A stretch of DNA of 64,000 bases from Escherichia phage ECO07P1. Location of the stretch: sequence record OP172784, one strand, 5' to 3'. The notes beneath the pieces are model-generated. The model saw only the letters and a program-made list of their open reading frames with translations, did no database searches and was not told the DNA's origin. Position numbers and translations under genes: made by a program. Position 1 is the stretch's first letter. Each line of letters starts with the position of its first letter. Below, piece after piece: positions 29,777-43,246 of this stretch.

Positions 29777-30980
<1,204 letters not shown>

Positions 30981-34235: not shown

Positions 34236-34240
34236 GTTGA

Positions 34241-34266
34241 GGACTCCTTCGGGAGTCCTTTTTTAT
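34241..34266 (+). terminator. intrinsic terminator (UUCG hairpin plus T-run)
   Basis: ggactcc-ttcg-ggagtcc followed by tttttt. Confidence 0.8.
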
Positions 34267-35112: not shown

Positions 35113-35120
35113 AATAAAAT

Positions 35121-35138
35121 AAGGGGCTTCGGCCCCTT
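35121..35138 (+). other. UUCG-tetraloop hairpin (no following T-run)
   Basis: aagggg-c-ttcg-g-cccctt after ORF 34747..35112. Confidence 0.5.
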
Positions 35139-35153
35139 ACTGAGGAAAATACT

Positions 35154-35441
35154 ATGTTTATGACTACTTATTTTGATACTCGTAAAAACTTCTGCGAAGT
35201 AGTTTTCTCTAAGGCGCCTAAAGACCTTCCTGCTCATTTGCAGCCTACCAGTGAATCGATTAAAAACTATGTTAATGTAGTATGTCCTTTAGAGTTCCGT
35301 ACTGTAAATGGGCGTGATACTCTAGCTATCACTAAACTCAACCGTGAAATTGACATTGACCCTTCAATCGCGCGCGAAATTAACATTTCTGATATCGGCG
35401 GCGGTAATGTTAAATCGCATGGTTTTCAGATGAGGTTCTAA
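35154..35441 (+). CDS. hypothetical protein
   Basis: Track ORF; SD gagga. Confidence 0.5.
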   Translation: MFMTTYFDTRKNFCEVVFSKAPKDLPAHLQPTSESIKNYVNVVCPLEFRTVNGRDTLAITKLNREIDIDPSIAREINISDIGGGNVKSHGFQMRF

Positions 35442-35638
35442 TGAAATTCTTTTTAGGTCAAACTGTTGAATTAAAGGGAGTTGGTATACCTGGATTAATT
35501 TCTAAGGTTCTACCTCCATTTAAATGGAGTGGTATTCAAATAAAAGAGGCTTATATTGTTTCCTGGGTAGATGGAAATGAAGACCTTCGTATGGGTGATG
35601 AATTATCTCCTATCTACGGATTAAAGGAATTAATATGA
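35441..35638 (+). CDS. hypothetical protein
   Basis: Track ORF; overlapping stop/start. Confidence 0.45.
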   Translation: MKFFLGQTVELKGVGIPGLISKVLPPFKWSGIQIKEAYIVSWVDGNEDLRMGDELSPIYGLKELI

Positions 35639-35841
35639 ATATAATTAATAAGATTTTTGGAATTCAGTACATTAAGGTTACATATAAAGTAACGTATAAA
35701 GGTCCGTATACCGATGAACATGAAGAGCCACAAGTTCAGTCTATTATATTAGAAAAGGACCCTAACTGGCCAGTTGAATTTCGTCTTCCTTGCTATGGTC
35801 ATTGGGCTGATGTTGAAATTATAAGTATTGAAAATGTCTGA
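35635..35841 (+). CDS. hypothetical protein
   Basis: Track ORF. Confidence 0.45.
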   Translation: MNIINKIFGIQYIKVTYKVTYKGPYTDEHEEPQVQSIILEKDPNWPVEFRLPCYGHWADVEIISIENV

Positions 35842-36292
35842 GTTAGAGATAAGAAGCAATTTTAGATGGCCATCATGCGCATTAAGTAATTTCGCCCAAT
35901 GGCCTTTTGTTATGGACGGTATTCAATTTGGAGGTCTCGAAGGATTCCTCCAAGGATGTAAGGTGAAAAATGTTGAACAACAACGTCGCATATTTGGGTT
36001 ATCCGGGCTTGCCGCCCAACAAGCTGGACGAGCTTATGCTAGAGCTCAGGACCGTGGGACCCTCTTCTGGCTTGGAGTTCCGTTTTCAAGATACTCTCCA
36101 GCGTGGAAAGAATTATACACAAATGCATATTTTGAAGCAGCGATCCAAAACAAGGGATTTCGTGATGCATTACAAGCCTCGAAAGGAAAAGTTTTGAAGC
36201 ACAGCATGGCTAGTGGTCTAACAAAAGATGATACAATACTAACCGAAGCTGAATTTATTGATGTGTTAAACCTATTAAGAGACTCTCTATGA
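35834..36292 (+). CDS. NADAR / YbiA-like (DUF1768) domain protein (T4 30.3 position)
   Basis: Motifs SNFAQWPFVMDG...EGFLQGCK resemble the YbiA/NADAR fold; ATG 35834 overlaps upstream stop; track start 35828 is TTG. Confidence 0.55.
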   Translation: MSELEIRSNFRWPSCALSNFAQWPFVMDGIQFGGLEGFLQGCKVKNVEQQRRIFGLSGLAAQQAGRAYARAQDRGTLFWLGVPFSRYSPAWKELYTNAYFEAAIQNKGFRDALQASKGKVLKHSMASGLTKDDTILTEAEFIDVLNLLRDSL

Positions 36293-37128
36293 AGCCTACT
36301 ATTTTAACTGATATTGATGGAGTATGTTTAAGCTGGCAATCAGGTCTTCCTTATTTTGCTCAGAAATATAATCTTCCGTTAGAACATATTTTAAAAATGA
36401 TCCAAGATGAGAAATTTATTTCTCCAGGTAAACTCTTTAATTGTGATGAAGAACTTGGCGTCAAGTTAATTGAAAAATACAATCGTTCAGATTTTATTCG
36501 TTATTTGTCTCCGTATAAAGATGCCCTGTGTGTAATTAACAAATTAAAAGAAGATTATAATTTTGTAGCTGTTACAGCATTGGGTGATTCTATTGACGCT
36601 CTGTTGAATCGTCAATTTAATTTGAATGCTCTTTTTCCTGGTGCCTTCTCAGAAGTAATGATGTGTGGTCATGATTCTTCAAAAGAAGAGTTATTTAAAA
36701 AGGCAAAAGAGAAATATAACGTAATTTGTTATATTGACGATCTCGCTCACCACTGCGACCATGCGAGTGAAATATTAAATGTTCCTGTTTATTGGATGGC
36801 GCGAGGAGAGCGTGACAATATTCCAAAAACCGCTCAGCGAGTTTATACATGGAATGATGTAGAAAATAAGCTTTTTTCACCAAAGGAAAATAAAGAAAGT
36901 TTTGATAGCGAAAAAGCTATAAAAAATATAATTGAAAAGATGATTAAAAATGATTCTTTTCGTTGGAACACTACCTGGAGAACTCCTGGATTTAATCCTT
37001 ATAATCATCTATATCATCCATATCAGACACATCCGTTTCAGACATGGAACTATATTAAACCTGGTGGAATAGAGTATTTGTATAATAGACCAACTTGTGG
37101 TGATAATATTTTCCAAGGAGCATTCTAA
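36289..37128 (+). CDS. HAD-superfamily hydrolase-like protein
   Basis: N-terminal motif ILTDIDGV (HAD motif I, DxDG) and downstream Asp-rich motif. Confidence 0.5.
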   Translation: MKPTILTDIDGVCLSWQSGLPYFAQKYNLPLEHILKMIQDEKFISPGKLFNCDEELGVKLIEKYNRSDFIRYLSPYKDALCVINKLKEDYNFVAVTALGDSIDALLNRQFNLNALFPGAFSEVMMCGHDSSKEELFKKAKEKYNVICYIDDLAHHCDHASEILNVPVYWMARGERDNIPKTAQRVYTWNDVENKLFSPKENKESFDSEKAIKNIIEKMIKNDSFRWNTTWRTPGFNPYNHLYHPYQTHPFQTWNYIKPGGIEYLYNRPTCGDNIFQGAF

Positions 37129-37397
37129 TGTTTGTCGTTCACACTATTTATGAAAATGAAGGTAATACTACGCGTGATTACGGTCACGTAAATCAATTTT
37201 TTAGATGCAATCCAGAATTCCGAGCTCAAAAAGACGAACGAATTTTTAAAAAATGTGTAGAGCAAGGTTTCATTTACGTCAAGCACTGGATGCAAGGAAA
37301 TAAAGTTAGAACTACATATCATAAGTCTTTGACTGAGCTTAATGATGAATTGATTTATAATAGAGCTGTAAACCAAACTTTGAAGGATGAGCAATGA
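37128..37397 (+). CDS. hypothetical protein (30.1 position)
   Basis: Track ORF; stop overlaps gene 30 start. Confidence 0.5.
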   Translation: MFVVHTIYENEGNTTRDYGHVNQFFRCNPEFRAQKDERIFKKCVEQGFIYVKHWMQGNKVRTTYHKSLTELNDELIYNRAVNQTLKDEQ

Positions 37398-38854
37398 TTC
37401 TTAAAATTCTGAACGAAATAGCATCTATTGGTTCAACTAAGCAGAAGCAAGCAATTCTTGAAAAGAATAAAGATAATGAATTGCTTAAACGAGTATATCG
37501 TCTAACTTATTCTCGTGGGTTACAGTATTATATCAAGAAATGGCCTAAACCTGGTATTGCTACCCAGAGTTTTGGAATGCTGACTCTTACAGATATGCTC
37601 GACTTCATTGAATTCACGTTAGCTACTCGGAAATTGACTGGAAATGCTGCAATTGAGGAATTAACTGGATATATCACTGATGGTAAAAAGGATGATGTTG
37701 AAGTTTTGCGTCGAGTTATGATGCGAGACCTTGAATGCGGTGCTTCAGTATCTATTGCAAACAAAGTTTGGCCAGGTTTAATTCCTGAACAACCTCAAAT
37801 GCTGGCAAGTTCTTATGATGAAAAGGGCATTAATAAGAATATCAAATTTCCAGCCTTTGCCCAGTTAAAAGCAGATGGAGCTCGGTGTTTTGCTGAAGTT
37901 AGAGGTGATGAATTAGATGATGTTCGTCTTTTATCACGAGCTGGCAATGAATATCTAGGATTAGATCTTCTTAAGGAAGAGTTAATCAAAATGACTGCTG
38001 AAGCCCGCCAGATTCATCCAGAAGGTGTGTTAATTGATGGCGAATTGGTATACCATGAGCAAGTTAAAAAGGAACCAGAAGGCCTAGATTTTCTTTTTGA
38101 TGCTCCTGAAATTAGTAAAGCTAAAGAATTCGCCGAAGTAGCTGAATCACGTACTGCATCTAATGGCATCGCCAATAAATCTTTAAAGGGAACCATTTCT
38201 GAAAAAGAAGCCAAATGCATGAAGTTTCAGGTCTGGGATTATGTCCCGTTGGTAGAAATATACGGTCTTCCTGCATTTCGTTTGAAATATGATGTACGTT
38301 TTTCTAAACTAGAACAAATGACATCAGGTTATGATAAAGTAATTTTAATTGAAAACCAGGTAGTAAATAACCTAGATGAAGCTAAGGTAATTTACAAAAA
38401 GTATATTGACCAAGGTCTTGAGGGTATTATTCTCAAAAATACCGATGGATTGTGGGAAAATGCTCGTTCAAAAAATCTTTATAAATTTAAAGAAGTAATT
38501 GATGTTGATTTAAAAATTGTAGGAATTTATCCTCACCGTAAAGACCCTACTAAAGCGGGCGGATTTATTCTTGAATCAGAGTGTGGAAAAATTAAGGTAA
38601 ATGCTGGTTCAGGCTTAAAAGATAAAGCTGGCGTAAAATCACATGAACTTGACCGTACTCGCATTATGGAAAACCAAAATTATTATATTGGAAAAATTCT
38701 AGAATGTGAATGCAATGGTTGGTTAAAATCTGACGGCCGCACTGATTACGTTAAATTATTTCTTCCGATTGCGATTCGTTTACGTGAAGATAAAACTAAA
38801 GCTAATACATTCGAGGATGTATTTGGTGATTTTCATGAGGTAACTGGTCTATGA
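37394..38854 (+). CDS. 30: ATP-dependent DNA ligase
   Basis: 486-aa ORF with adenylation motif KADGAR, recognised as T4 DNA ligase. Confidence 0.95.
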   Translation: MILKILNEIASIGSTKQKQAILEKNKDNELLKRVYRLTYSRGLQYYIKKWPKPGIATQSFGMLTLTDMLDFIEFTLATRKLTGNAAIEELTGYITDGKKDDVEVLRRVMMRDLECGASVSIANKVWPGLIPEQPQMLASSYDEKGINKNIKFPAFAQLKADGARCFAEVRGDELDDVRLLSRAGNEYLGLDLLKEELIKMTAEARQIHPEGVLIDGELVYHEQVKKEPEGLDFLFDAPEISKAKEFAEVAESRTASNGIANKSLKGTISEKEAKCMKFQVWDYVPLVEIYGLPAFRLKYDVRFSKLEQMTSGYDKVILIENQVVNNLDEAKVIYKKYIDQGLEGIILKNTDGLWENARSKNLYKFKEVIDVDLKIVGIYPHRKDPTKAGGFILESECGKIKVNAGSGLKDKAGVKSHELDRTRIMENQNYYIGKILECECNGWLKSDGRTDYVKLFLPIAIRLREDKTKANTFEDVFGDFHEVTGL

Positions 38855-39039
38855 AAGCTTACTTAGAAACAATTGTCATTGCTCAAAAAGAAGGTGGAGA
38901 TGTTTCTACTTCTGTATCACAAGTCATTCTCGAATTTGTAGATGCATATGCTTATAATAAATTTACAGAAACATTTGATGCCTATGAAAAAGGACCAAAG
39001 TTTGAAATATATCGTACTCTCTTACCACTAGATTACTAA
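38851..39039 (+). CDS. hypothetical protein
   Basis: Track ORF; ATGA overlap with gene 30; hairpin downstream. Confidence 0.45.
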   Translation: MKAYLETIVIAQKEGGDVSTSVSQVILEFVDAYAYNKFTETFDAYEKGPKFEIYRTLLPLDY

Positions 39040-39054
39040 AGGCCTTCGGGCCTT
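39039..39054 (+). terminator. UUCG hairpin after ORF 38851..39039, immediately before the alt late promoter
   Basis: aaggcc-ttcg-ggcctt followed by taatttt. Confidence 0.55.
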
Positions 39055-39060
39055 TAATTT

Positions 39061-39068: not shown

Positions 39069-39091
39069 GAATAAACACTAGAGAGGCTATG

Positions 39092-41185
39092 ATGGAACTT
39101 ATTACAGAATTATTTGACGAAGATACTACTCTTCCGATTACAAACTTAAATCCAAAGAAGAAAATACCGCAAATTTTTTCAGTTCATGTTGATGACGCAA
39201 TTGAACAACCAGGCTTTCGTTTATGTACCTATACATCTGGAGGTGATACTAATCGCGATTTAAAAATGGGCGATAAAATGATGCATATTGTTCCTTTTAC
39301 ATTAACTGCTAAAGGTTCAATTGCTAAATTAAAAGGTCTCGGTCCAAGCCCAATTAATTATATCAATTCAGTTTTTACTGTTGCAATGCAGACGATGCGT
39401 CAGTATAAAATTGATGCCTGTATGCTCCGTATTCTTAAGTCTAAAACTGCTGGTCAAGCTCGACAAATTCAAGTTATTGCTGATAGACTTATCCGTAGTC
39501 GTTCGGGTGGCAGATACGTCCTTCTTAAGGAACTCTGGGATTACGATAAAAAGTATGCATATATTCTTATACATCGCAAAAATGTATCACTAGAAGACAT
39601 TCCAGGAGTTCCGGAAATTAGCACCGAGCTCTTTACTAAAGTTGAATCGAAGGTCGGTGATGTTTATATCAATAAAGATACTGGAGCTCAAGTAACTAAA
39701 AATGAGGCAATTGCTGCATCTATTGCGCAAGAAAATGATAAACGTTCTGACCAAGCTGTAATCGTTAAAGTTAAAATTTCCCGTAGAGCAATTGCACAAA
39801 GTCAATCATTAGAATCTTCTAGATTTGAAAGCGAATTATTCCAGAAGTATGAATCTACCGCAGCTAATTTCAATAAACCTGCTACCGCTCCTTTAATTCC
39901 CGAAGCAGAAGAAATGAAACTTGGAATTAATTCATTGGCTTCTAAAACTAAGGCAGCAAAAATTATTGCTGAAGGAACTGCAGATGAACTTCACTATGAT
40001 TATAAATTCTTTTCAAAAAGTGAGGTTAATGAAGTTTCTGAAAAAATTAAAGATGTAATTTTTAACGCGATCAAAAATGAACCGACTACTTCAATAAAAT
40101 GTTTAGAGAAGTATGCAGCAGCTATTAATAAATTCTTTGAAGAATATAAAGATACTTGGCTTGATAAACATAATAAAACCCGTAAAGGACAGCCAGATGA
40201 AGTCTGGGAAGAAATAACTAAAAATTCCTGGAACGCAGCAAAAACTAAATTCCTCAAACGAATGATTTATAGCTTTTCTGGAATTGGTGCAGGTCCAATG
40301 ATTGATATTACTATTGCCCGTGATGGTTCTAAATATACTCCATCACAAAAGCGCGGCATTAGAGAGTATTGTGGTTCAGGATATACTGACATCAATAATC
40401 TTCTTTTAGGACGCTACAATCCAGAACGATATGATGTAATGAGTGAAAAAGAAATTGAATCTGCTATAAATAACTTAGATTCAGCTTTTGAAAATGGTGA
40501 CCGTATACCGGAAGGCATTACAGTTTATCGTGCACAAAGTATGACTGCTCCTATATACGAAGCACTAGTTAAAAATAAAGTGTTCTATTTCAGAAATTTT
40601 GTATCTACTTCTTTAACTCCTATCATTTTTGGGCGTTTTGGAATTACACATGCTGGTATTGGTCTTTTAGAACCAGAAGCTCGTAATGAATTAACAGTTG
40701 ATAAAAATGAAGAAGGAATAACTATTAATCCAAACGAAATAAGAGCGTATAAAGAAAATCCTGAATACGTTAAAGTTCAAATAGGATGGGCAATTGATGG
40801 AGCTCATAAAGTTAATGTTGTATATCCAGGAAGTCTCGGAATAGCAACAGAAGCTGAAGTTATTCTACCACGCGGATTGATGGTCAAAGTTAATAAAATA
40901 ACTGATGCTTCTAATAACGACGGAACAACATCTAATAATACAAAACTCATTCAAGCTGAAGTTATGACTACGGAAGAACTCACCGAATCAGTCATTTATG
41001 ACGGTGACCGTCTAATGGAAACTGGTGAAGTAGTTGCAATGACAGGTGATATTGAAATAGAAGACAGAGTTGACTTTGCATCATTTGTTTCATCAAATGT
41101 TAAACAAAAAGTAGAATCATCTCTTGGAATTATTGCGTCTTGCATAGATATTACAAACATGCCTTACAAGTTCGTTCAAGGATAA
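39092..41185 (+). CDS. alt: Alt ADP-ribosyltransferase (packaged head protein), copy 1
   Basis: ~697 aa; N-terminal MELITE (L/I-x-E protease-site-like); R...STS...E signature (VYRAQ, FVSTSL, EAEVILPRG); late promoter directly upstream. Confidence 0.8.
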   Translation: MELITELFDEDTTLPITNLNPKKKIPQIFSVHVDDAIEQPGFRLCTYTSGGDTNRDLKMGDKMMHIVPFTLTAKGSIAKLKGLGPSPINYINSVFTVAMQTMRQYKIDACMLRILKSKTAGQARQIQVIADRLIRSRSGGRYVLLKELWDYDKKYAYILIHRKNVSLEDIPGVPEISTELFTKVESKVGDVYINKDTGAQVTKNEAIAASIAQENDKRSDQAVIVKVKISRRAIAQSQSLESSRFESELFQKYESTAANFNKPATAPLIPEAEEMKLGINSLASKTKAAKIIAEGTADELHYDYKFFSKSEVNEVSEKIKDVIFNAIKNEPTTSIKCLEKYAAAINKFFEEYKDTWLDKHNKTRKGQPDEVWEEITKNSWNAAKTKFLKRMIYSFSGIGAGPMIDITIARDGSKYTPSQKRGIREYCGSGYTDINNLLLGRYNPERYDVMSEKEIESAINNLDSAFENGDRIPEGITVYRAQSMTAPIYEALVKNKVFYFRNFVSTSLTPIIFGRFGITHAGIGLLEPEARNELTVDKNEEGITINPNEIRAYKENPEYVKVQIGWAIDGAHKVNVVYPGSLGIATEAEVILPRGLMVKVNKITDASNNDGTTSNNTKLIQAEVMTTEELTESVIYDGDRLMETGEVVAMTGDIEIEDRVDFASFVSSNVKQKVESSLGIIASCIDITNMPYKFVQG

Positions 41186-41188
41186 ATC

Positions 41189-43246
41189 ATGGAACTTATT
41201 ACAGAATTATTTGACGGCGCTTCGGCGCCGGTTGTTAACTTAAATCCTAAGCATAAAATACCTCAAATTTTCGCTATTCAAGCCGGTGAAGAAAGTGTGC
41301 TTCCTGGATTTAGATTTTGTACATACACCTCTGGCGGTGATACAAATAAAAACGTTAAGCCAGGCGATAAAATGATGCATATCGTAATGATAGGTGTTAA
41401 TGAGAAATTATCATTAGTTAAACTTAAAAACTTGGGTGGAAATCCAATTGGTGTTATTAATGCGGTTTTTGATACTGCTCTTCAAACAATGAAACAGTAT
41501 AAAATTGACGCATGCCTATTCCGCGTACTAAAAAGTAAAACAAATGGCGCAGCTCGTCAAATGCAAGTTATTGCTGACCGTTTAGTACGTACTAAAGGAG
41601 CAGGTCGATATGTTCTTTTAAAGGAAATCTGGGATTATGATAAAAAGTATGCATATATTATGGTTTACCGTAAAAATGCCAATTTAGAAGACATTCCAGG
41701 TGTACCTCCTATTTCAACTGAGTTATTCACAAAAGTTGAATCAAAGGTTGGTGATGTTTATGTAGATGTTAAAACAGGTAATGCTGTTCCTAAAGCTGTT
41801 GCTGTTGCTGCTTCTATTGCTTTAGAAAATGATAAGCGCACGGATCAAGCTGTTATTCAGAAAACTAAAATTAGTCGTCGATTAGCAGCGCAAGCTCAAT
41901 ATTCTACTGTAGATGCTTCGCTTCAGGGTGATAGCTTCGCTGCCAAGAAATATCAAGAGTTTGAATCTAAAGTTCCGGTATATAAAGCAGAAGGACCAAT
42001 GAACTCTGGCGTTATTCAGATTGGTTCAAACTTCAGCAAAGGAGCTATCGGTGGTATGAGAAGTGCTTCTCGTTTTAAATCTAGCGATTATGAACTAGAA
42101 AACTTCCGAAATCATATTGCATTGGCTCATGCGCGTTTACGTGATCCATCTATCAAGTTACAGAGCGATATAACATATCAAGGTTCTCAGGAATATTTAA
42201 AGAATAAAGAATTTTTTGATTATAAAACTGATAAAATTTTAAGCGATCTTGCTGACATTAATATTTCTAATAGCTTTGATGTTATTAAGAAAATCGTCAA
42301 TGATTTAGTTAAAGGTTCTAAAGCCACGCCAGACGAAAAGATAGCTATTGTTCAATTTGTCATGAATGGCATTTATAAATTGATTAATGAGTCTGCTTCT
42401 CAAGCGTATGAATATGCAAGTACCGAAGTACCCCCAAAAGGATTAACTCAGGCTGAGTCTGATGTAATTGAAGATTATTGTGCAGATTCATATGTTGAAA
42501 TGAACTCGTTCCTCTTGGGTAAACCAGATTCTACCCGTGAAGAATACATGGAACGAGCTATTAAACACATCGAGACGCTGGATTCTGCATTCGCCAAAGG
42601 ATCAGTTCTTCCTCCAGGAACTACGCTTTATCGTGGACAAGAAGTTACTTTTAAAACTTTACGCCATAATATTGAAAATAAAATGTTCTATTTCAAGAAC
42701 TTCGTATCAACATCGCTTAAACCAAATATCTTCGGTGAGTATGGTAAAAACTATATGGCCCTAGATGATTCTGGTGCAGTATTTTCTGGTGAAGGAGAAG
42801 GTTCAGTTGATGCTGAAGATTTAATGCATATGGGCAGTCACTCTGCTTACGCGAATGAAGATGCTGAAACTAGCGTGGGTATGGTAATTAAAGGGGCTGA
42901 GCGAATCAAAGTTATCGTTCCAGGTCATTTATCAGGATTTCCATCAGAAGCTGAAGTTATTCTACCGCGCGGAATTTTACTGAAGATTAATAAAGTAAGT
43001 ACGTACTTTATGAAAGAAACTGCTTATAACAAGTATCTAATAGAAGGTACAATCGTTCCTCCTTCTGAACAATTAGAGGAATCGGTATATGATGGCGACC
43101 ATCTAATGGAAACTGGCGAAGTTCGTCCAATGGCTGGATTTAATCAATTCCTTGTAGAAGAATCAAAAGAAGAGGAAAACGAAGTTTCTCAAATCTTAGC
43201 TTCTTTGGTTAACATTAACGGAATGTCTAAAAAGTTCAAAATGTAG
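41189..43246 (+). CDS. Alt-like ADP-ribosyltransferase paralog, copy 2
   Basis: 685 aa; same N-terminal MELITELFD, same signature (LYRGQ, FVSTSL, EAEVILPRG), conserved C-terminal ESVYDGDHLMETGEV; central ~200 aa divergent. Confidence 0.75.
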   Translation: MELITELFDGASAPVVNLNPKHKIPQIFAIQAGEESVLPGFRFCTYTSGGDTNKNVKPGDKMMHIVMIGVNEKLSLVKLKNLGGNPIGVINAVFDTALQTMKQYKIDACLFRVLKSKTNGAARQMQVIADRLVRTKGAGRYVLLKEIWDYDKKYAYIMVYRKNANLEDIPGVPPISTELFTKVESKVGDVYVDVKTGNAVPKAVAVAASIALENDKRTDQAVIQKTKISRRLAAQAQYSTVDASLQGDSFAAKKYQEFESKVPVYKAEGPMNSGVIQIGSNFSKGAIGGMRSASRFKSSDYELENFRNHIALAHARLRDPSIKLQSDITYQGSQEYLKNKEFFDYKTDKILSDLADINISNSFDVIKKIVNDLVKGSKATPDEKIAIVQFVMNGIYKLINESASQAYEYASTEVPPKGLTQAESDVIEDYCADSYVEMNSFLLGKPDSTREEYMERAIKHIETLDSAFAKGSVLPPGTTLYRGQEVTFKTLRHNIENKMFYFKNFVSTSLKPNIFGEYGKNYMALDDSGAVFSGEGEGSVDAEDLMHMGSHSAYANEDAETSVGMVIKGAERIKVIVPGHLSGFPSEAEVILPRGILLKINKVSTYFMKETAYNKYLIEGTIVPPSEQLEESVYDGDHLMETGEVRPMAGFNQFLVEESKEEENEVSQILASLVNINGMSKKFKM

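Follow-up and report, generated by a model that had tools for sequence, protein, structure and literature searches.

NADAR proteins in phages and bacteria

The closest described counterpart of the locus analyzed here is gene 30.3 of phage T4, whose product was named as a phage NADAR by Cihlova et al. (Toxins 2024, PMC11125620). In vitro, T4 gp30.3 hydrolyzed guanosine-linked but not thymidine-linked ADP-ribose, and it was unable to rescue E. coli from DarT1 (PMC11125620). Johannesman et al. (Nat Commun 2025, PMC11825919) traced T-even phages' ability to resist DarTG1 to gene 30.3, renamed it adfN, and reported it to be both necessary and sufficient for this resistance. Deletion of adfN in T4 and T2 abolished plaquing on DarTG1, the exchanges E36A and K43A weakened AdfN, and the purified protein stripped ADP-ribose from DarT1-modified DNA. 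AdfN did not counter DarTG2, and full function of T4 AdfN was displayed only during T-even phage infection. The DarTG1-sensitive phage RB69 carries an allele of its own that lacks the last 15 residues, leaving the C-terminal helix truncated, and was fully rescued by plasmid-borne adfN alone (PMC11825919). In an independent transposon screen of T4 (HIDEN-SEQ preprint), insertions in 30.3 were lost on DarTG1 (log2FC −7.25).

The mechanism of NADAR proteins was described by Schuller et al. (Mol Cell 2023), according to whom phage NADARs have a His for the second catalytic Glu of YbiA-type proteins. As third active-site residue, proteins of the YbiA subfamily have Glu, those of the BC4488 subfamily and DarT1-associated NADARs have Asp, and phage NADARs have His (Schuller et al.). 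For the NADAR part of the present locus, gene, fold, activity, and phenotype have already been published, and nothing new is added here; the enzyme assays and plating experiments proposed in a first-pass annotation of this DNA had likewise been carried out in the published work.

Genomic setting of the locus

The window is a stretch of 64,000 nucleotides from Escherichia phage ECO07P1 (OP172784). Its region 35600-37400 displayed 100% identity to Escherichia phage ECO07P3 (OP172786.1; host E. fergusonii) and an identity above 95% to over 300 further T4-like phages. Gene order corresponded one-to-one to that of T4 (31, rIII, 30.9 ... 30.4, 30.3, 30.2, 30.1, 30 (ligase), alt.1, alt), and the window is a segment of a Tequatrovirus genome. 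The two open reading frames singled out in the first-pass annotation, i.e. genes 30.3 and 30.2 (Table 1), were both present and had the same bounds as deposited CDSs of ECO07P3. Since 685 DNA matches were found in phage records (495 of them with a coverage of at least 80% of the length) and the two proteins matched Pfam PF08010 and phrog_420, respectively, these frames represent real genes and not chance ORFs.

Table 1. Coordinates of genes, catalytic codons, and the 3′ hairpin in the 30.x region of the window
Feature	Position	Strand	Remarks
Gene 30.4	35635..35841	+	68 aa; phrog_2042 (E = 8e-34); no Pfam family
Gene 30.3 = adfN (anti-DarT factor NADAR)	35834..36292	+	152 aa; ATG start; PF08010
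adfN codon E36	35939-35941	+	
adfN codon K43	35960-35962	+	
adfN codon H123	36200-36202	+	phage-type residue
ORF 30.3′, +1 frame within adfN	35970..36197	+	75 aa; from the ORF list; internal translation product in T4 annotation
Gene 30.2, predicted HAD phosphatase	36289..37128	+	279 aa
Gene 30.2 codon D8	36310-36312	+	
Gene 30.2 codon D10	36316-36318	+	
Gene 30.1, DUF3045	37128..37397	+	89 aa; Pfam PF11243 (E = 1.1e-63)
Gene 30, ATP-dependent DNA ligase	37394..38854	+	486 aa; Pfam PF01068 (E = 8.4e-33); 99% identity to T4 ligase
Terminator-like GC hairpin, then T-rich stretch	39037..39056	+	terminator scan; 3′ of alt.1

Genes across 35154-39039 abut or overlap. The 3′ end of 30.4 overlaps the start of adfN by 8 nt, and in the sequence ATGA at 36289-36292 the start codon of 30.2 overlaps the stop codon of 30.3. 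The terminator-like hairpin 3′ of alt.1 would close this tightly packed, co-directional cluster, which extends from 30.6 to alt.1. A promoter scan was uninformative (34 sites compared with 32 expected). Two further strong GC-rich hairpins with a T run were noted, (i) at 35118-35141, between 30.7 and 30.6, called terminator-like on the minus strand; and (ii) at 34239-34260 on the plus strand, 3′ of 30.9. Possibly, these hairpins mark transcription boundaries of the 30.x cluster.

Two details of the neighborhood given in the first-pass annotation have to be corrected. The HAD gene does not lie immediately upstream of the ligase gene, as the small gene 30.1 intervenes, and pseT, which had been placed next to the other genes, is located ~4.9 kb upstream (~30072-30980), separated by 14 annotated genes. 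On the other side of the cluster, two tandem full-length genes of the Alt family of ADP-ribosyltransferases were found on the plus strand. The first (39089-41185) resembles T4 Alt in a mosaic fashion, with 70% identity overall, nearly identical ends, and a diverged middle; the second (41189-43246) displays 41% identity to T4 Alt and occupies the site of the T4 remnants alt.-1 and alt.-2.

Gene 30.3 encodes AdfN

The 30.3 protein was identical to T4 gp30.3 in 150 of 152 residues and equal in length; the two substitutions (A67 for S and M125 for I) are conservative, and neither affects a catalytic residue. It contains the motif residues S18-N-F-A-Q-W-P24, D28-G29, E36, Q40, and K43, i.e. exactly the pattern SNFAxWP...DG...E..Q..K from which the first-pass annotation had recognized a member of the NADAR/YbiA family. 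Profile searches bore out this assignment. PF08010 (Phage_30_3) was matched with E = 4.4e-70 (234.3 bits; gathering score, 36), and the sole match of the gp30.3 family profile in the PDB was E. coli YbiA (E = 0.007), aligned over the SNFA...E..Q..K segment. Family profiles were needed for this search, as the single sequences of gp30.3 or gp30.2 retrieved only noise from the PDB. Both PF08010 and PF08719 were detected on one of the gp30.3 homologs. NCBIfam held no model for gp30.3, gp30.2, or gp30.1.

The catalytic Glu and Lys are represented by E36 and K43 (cf. E43/K50 of PnNADAR). Across an alignment of 48 homologs, with identities to the window protein down to 35%, E36 and H123 were invariant and K43 was at least 90% conserved. 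With the equivalence taken from Schuller et al., the invariant H123 would correspond to the position of E125 in PnNADAR. The structural model contains the NADAR alpha+beta fold, and the C-terminal helix (residues 138-151) of the full-length protein is intact in it. Because of the Pfam match, the conserved catalytic residues, and the profile match to YbiA, NADAR membership of gp30.3 is established independently of the literature. The protein is full length, nearly identical to T4 gp30.3 in sequence, and shares its fold and catalytic residues; it is AdfN. Its gene is an orphan with no DarT toxin gene adjoining; its neighbors are gp30.4, the HAD gene, the DUF3045 gene, and the ligase gene.

In 12 of 13 relatives, among them the ones with ~86%-identical gp30.3, the +1 frame corresponding to ORF 30.3′ ran through 76 codons without a stop; its ATG start was replaced in several relatives. 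We also noted that many database entries of T-even-like gp30.3 are shortened or split, with 86-126 aa at 80-97% identity, and some were fused to unrelated Pfam families. These entries suggest that natural disruption of adfN may be frequent, as in RB69.

Gene 30.2 encodes a predicted HAD phosphatase

The product of gene 30.2 was identical to T4 gp30.2 in 271 of 279 residues and matched phrog_420 with E = 3.5e-92. It starts with MKPTILTDIDGV, which carries D8 and D10 and includes the HAD motif I (ILTDIDGV) that had been read correctly in the first-pass annotation; all four HAD motifs turned out to be conserved. In an alignment of 39 homologs, D8/D10 of motif I, K132 of motif III, and D150-D151 of motif IV were invariant, and T96 of motif II was at least 90% conserved. 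After addition of relatives with as little as 23% identity, D8, D10, and K132 were still invariant and D151 was at least 90% conserved. The structural model displayed a Rossmann-like HAD core and a helical C1 cap inserted after strand 1 (~residues 16-72) with pLDDT > 90. In this model, core and cap occupy residues 1 to ~197; a helix (207-220) comes next, and the tail (~223-279) is disordered.

The tail (36955-37128) is rich in Pro, Trp, Tyr, and Asn and ends with GGIEYLYNRPT...; the last ~80 residues were lineage-variable or absent. A conserved docking motif in the tail was considered and rejected, as the pattern G-[IL]-E-Y-[LWY]..-Q/R-P-T occurred in only 16 of 57 long homologs. Other lineages had tails with LRAYY, LLNK..AND, or LPIITG, or none at all, and no single family-wide motif was found.

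Conserved motifs and modeled fold together indicate that gp30.2 is a genuine HAD phosphatase. In the HAD superfamily, an Asp at position +2 from the nucleophile is the signature of phosphatases and phosphomutases, as opposed to dehalogenases or ATPases. Because this Asp is present as the invariant D10, gp30.2 is predicted to be a phosphatase rather than a dehalogenase. C1 caps close over small substrates, and HAD enzymes acting on macromolecules are usually capless; the modeled cap thus argues for a small substrate of gp30.2. The protein would then be a Mg-dependent HAD phosphomonoesterase that most likely dephosphorylates a small nucleotide-like substrate.

With respect to the kind of substrate, gp30.2 alone had no Pfam match, remaining below every Pfam threshold. 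The Pfam family NT5C (PF06941) was matched by 7 of the 39 close relatives (best E = 1.2e-4) and by 19 of 46 distant relatives (best E = 4.2e-10). The gp30.2 family profile retrieved human mdN (2jao, E = 0.018), aligned via DxDGVL..F/W.SGL. The nearest characterized group thus appears to be the NT5C 5′(3′)-deoxyribonucleotidases, but the substrate assignment is only moderately supported, because other HAD subfamilies and the capless core of the T4 PNK phosphatase scored almost as well. An exhaustive profile search yielded 1,445 relatives (50% clustering). All 46 proteins tested (gp30.2 of the window and 45 relatives) fell into phrog_420, which is annotated as 'unknown function'. A Foldseek search of BFVD with gp30.2 returned HAD and 'nucleotidase' annotations together with uncharacterized phage proteins and nothing else, and a literature search on gp30.2 found no biochemical data.

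In a second reading, gp30.2 would be a polynucleotide 3′-phosphatase which readies ends for the adjacent DNA ligase, as a second PNK-like end-healing activity. The PNK match spans only the catalytic core of 125-129 residues, however, and the large helical cap speaks against this reading, as do the sequence resemblance near motif I and the top Pfam matches of the relatives, both of which favor NT5C. Moreover, the phage already has pseT. We therefore consider a role of gp30.2 in end healing unlikely and prefer an NT5C-like phosphatase.

Proposed action of AdfN

Our best explanation for the locus, which we hold with high confidence, is that the 30.3 frame is an ortholog of adfN and that gp30.2 is a separate NT5C-like HAD phosphatase outside the anti-DarTG1 mechanism. 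In the host, DarT1 would ADP-ribosylate guanine in phage DNA and thereby block replication. AdfN would cut the N-glycosidic bond between the N2 amino group of guanine and ADP-ribose and so restore the base, which would permit phage growth on DarTG1 hosts. Thymidine-linked ADP-ribose would not be a substrate, so DarTG2 would not be countered. Enzymology and phenotype were demonstrated for T4 gp30.3, which is 99% identical, and are extended to the phage of the window by inference. Because its adfN allele is intact, this phage is predicted to be resistant to DarTG1 hosts.

It is very unlikely that gp30.3 acts mainly on small soluble molecules instead of DNA, be it immune signals derived from ADP-ribose or, as for E. 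coli YbiA, reactive riboflavin intermediates. Two independent studies found that purified T4 gp30.3 frees guanine in DNA of ADP-ribose, deletion of the gene causes a specific and complete loss of plaquing on DarTG1, and a second, soluble substrate, although it may exist, is superfluous for explaining the data.

Conservation of the gene neighborhood

The first-pass annotation had regarded the NADAR gene, the HAD gene, and the DNA-repair genes ligase and pseT as a possible counter-defense or repair module. Its idea of a NADAR counter-defense was right, although already known, as the near-identical T4 gp30.3 has been published as the anti-DarTG1 protein AdfN; the joint NADAR-HAD-ligase module was not supported in view of synteny, chemistry, and T4 genetics. 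Such a module would imply that the adduct is first removed by the NADAR protein and that repair is then finished by HAD phosphatase and ligase (with pseT). The genes are indeed co-directional and tightly packed, with a stop/start overlap between 30.3 and 30.2, and Tequatrovirus, the group with ~86%-identical gp30.3, and several T4-like phages further removed share the order 30.3-30.2-(30.1)-ligase. An NT5C-like HAD gene was also found near a gp30.3 homolog in a few unrelated phages (L031, L082, L063/L064).

To set against this, we sampled 80 loci around gp30.2 homologs and 80 around gp30.3 homologs. A ligase gene was located within ~2 kb in 75 of the 80 gp30.2 loci, compared with a nearby gp30.3 homolog in 37, and gp30.2 was nearby in only about 20 of the 80 gp30.3 loci. 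At least nine T4-like contigs even have 55-70 kb between their gp30.3 homolog and the 30.2-ligase pair. The chemistry does not call for a partner either. As guanine emerges intact from the NADAR reaction, neither a phosphatase nor a ligase has to follow, and no nick or phosphate end is left for processing. In the T4 transposon data (HIDEN-SEQ preprint), insertions in 30.2 and 30.1 were fully tolerated; on DarTG1, where 30.3 insertions are lost, they were neutral (log2FC −0.12 for 30.2 and −0.01 for 30.1), and the same was true on RnlAB and in minimal medium. Finally, the complete rescue of RB69 required no phage gene on the plasmid other than adfN.

In evolution, gp30.2 is thus linked to the DNA ligase gene, not to adfN, and it has no part in the anti-DarTG1 mechanism. 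Adjacency of NADAR and HAD genes is a feature of particular lineages, and the conserved pairing is that of HAD and ligase. A NADAR-HAD-ligase module is very improbable and, for DarTG1, already largely refuted.

A functional link deduced from NT5C-like HAD genes near distant gp30.3 homologs was rejected as well: among roughly 60 gp30.3 loci without the 30.3-30.2-ligase arrangement, only four (L031, L082, L063, and L064) had such a gene within 5 kb. In two of them (L082, 4506-4994; L031, 3736-4308), the HAD gene lies just upstream of the gp30.3 homolog. In addition, the HAD core of gp30.2 was found fused in frame to DUF3045 (gp30.1) in a metagenomic protein, which represents one cluster of three sequences and stems from a 1.4-kb contig. 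This fusion may hint at a functional link between gp30.2 and gp30.1, or it may be an artefact of assembly or a frameshift.

Dependence of AdfN on the T-even context

In Data S6 of the HIDEN-SEQ preprint, 30.4 is the only gene besides 30.3 that was significantly depleted on DarTG1 (log2FC −1.79, adjusted p = 0.014), a depletion absent from the main text. Upstream of gp30.3, homologs of 30.4 turned up in no loci other than the Tequatrovirus-like ones and those of the group with ~86%-identical gp30.3. Gene 30.4 could be the missing T-even factor for AdfN, a reading that fits because 30.4 overlaps the start of adfN, lies upstream of gp30.3 in T-even-like loci only, and is depleted on DarTG1; we nevertheless regard it as rather doubtful. 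More simply, insertions close to the 3′ end of 30.4 may damage the ribosome-binding site of adfN or lower its expression, although the HIDEN-SEQ authors consider widespread polar effects unlikely. In view of translational coupling, gp30.2 was also considered as the T-even cofactor and was excluded by the neutral HIDEN-SEQ result and by synteny. Possibly, the ligase-linked gp30.2 counters a defense that is absent from E. coli K-12.

Taken at the level of annotation, two 'hypothetical protein' entries can be renamed, one as AdfN, anti-DarTG1 DNA ADP-ribosylglycohydrolase, and the other as HAD-family NT5C-like phosphatase. An intact adfN allele predicts resistance to DarTG1, which is useful for the choice of therapeutic phages. 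The residual value of the locus lies in an uncharacterized phosphatase with more than 1,400 detectable relatives, which T4-like phages keep beside the DNA ligase gene, and in the reliance of AdfN on infection by T-even phages.

Comparison with known systems

The putative phosphatase gp30.2 shares with the NT5C family (human mdN, 2jao, and cdN, 6g2n; Staphylococcus 3bwv) a HAD core with a helical cap, the DxD motif with Asp at +2, and the extended motif DxDGVL..[FW].SGL. Identity in structural alignments is just 16-21%, however, and gp30.2 has an extra tail of ~80 residues which the NT5C enzymes lack. The T4 PNK 3′-phosphatase domain (1ltq, 5uj0), in contrast, is capless and acts on nucleic-acid ends, whereas gp30.2 carries a C1 cap and lacks a kinase domain.

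Among NADAR proteins, T4 AdfN agrees with the window protein in length, in the neighbors 30.4 and 30.2, in E36 and K43, and in the C-terminal helix. Antitoxins of the DarG1 type (E. coli C7 NADAR; Geobacter lovleyi NADAR, 8bat) differ in several respects: the phage gene has no adjoining DarT toxin gene, its product comprises 152 residues compared with 219 for the Geobacter lovleyi protein, and H123 takes the place of the Asp of DarT1-associated NADARs (D171 in E. coli C7). In the E. coli C7 NADAR, K115 is needed for antitoxin function, and T4 gp30.3 is no substitute for DarG1 in uninfected cells. More distant are E. coli YbiA (2b3w) and the Phytophthora NADAR (8bau), which have ~20% identity to gp30.3 and belong to the YbiA subfamily with Glu at the third catalytic position; E. 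coli YbiA serves a housekeeping function in riboflavin metabolism and is encoded in a LexA-controlled operon.
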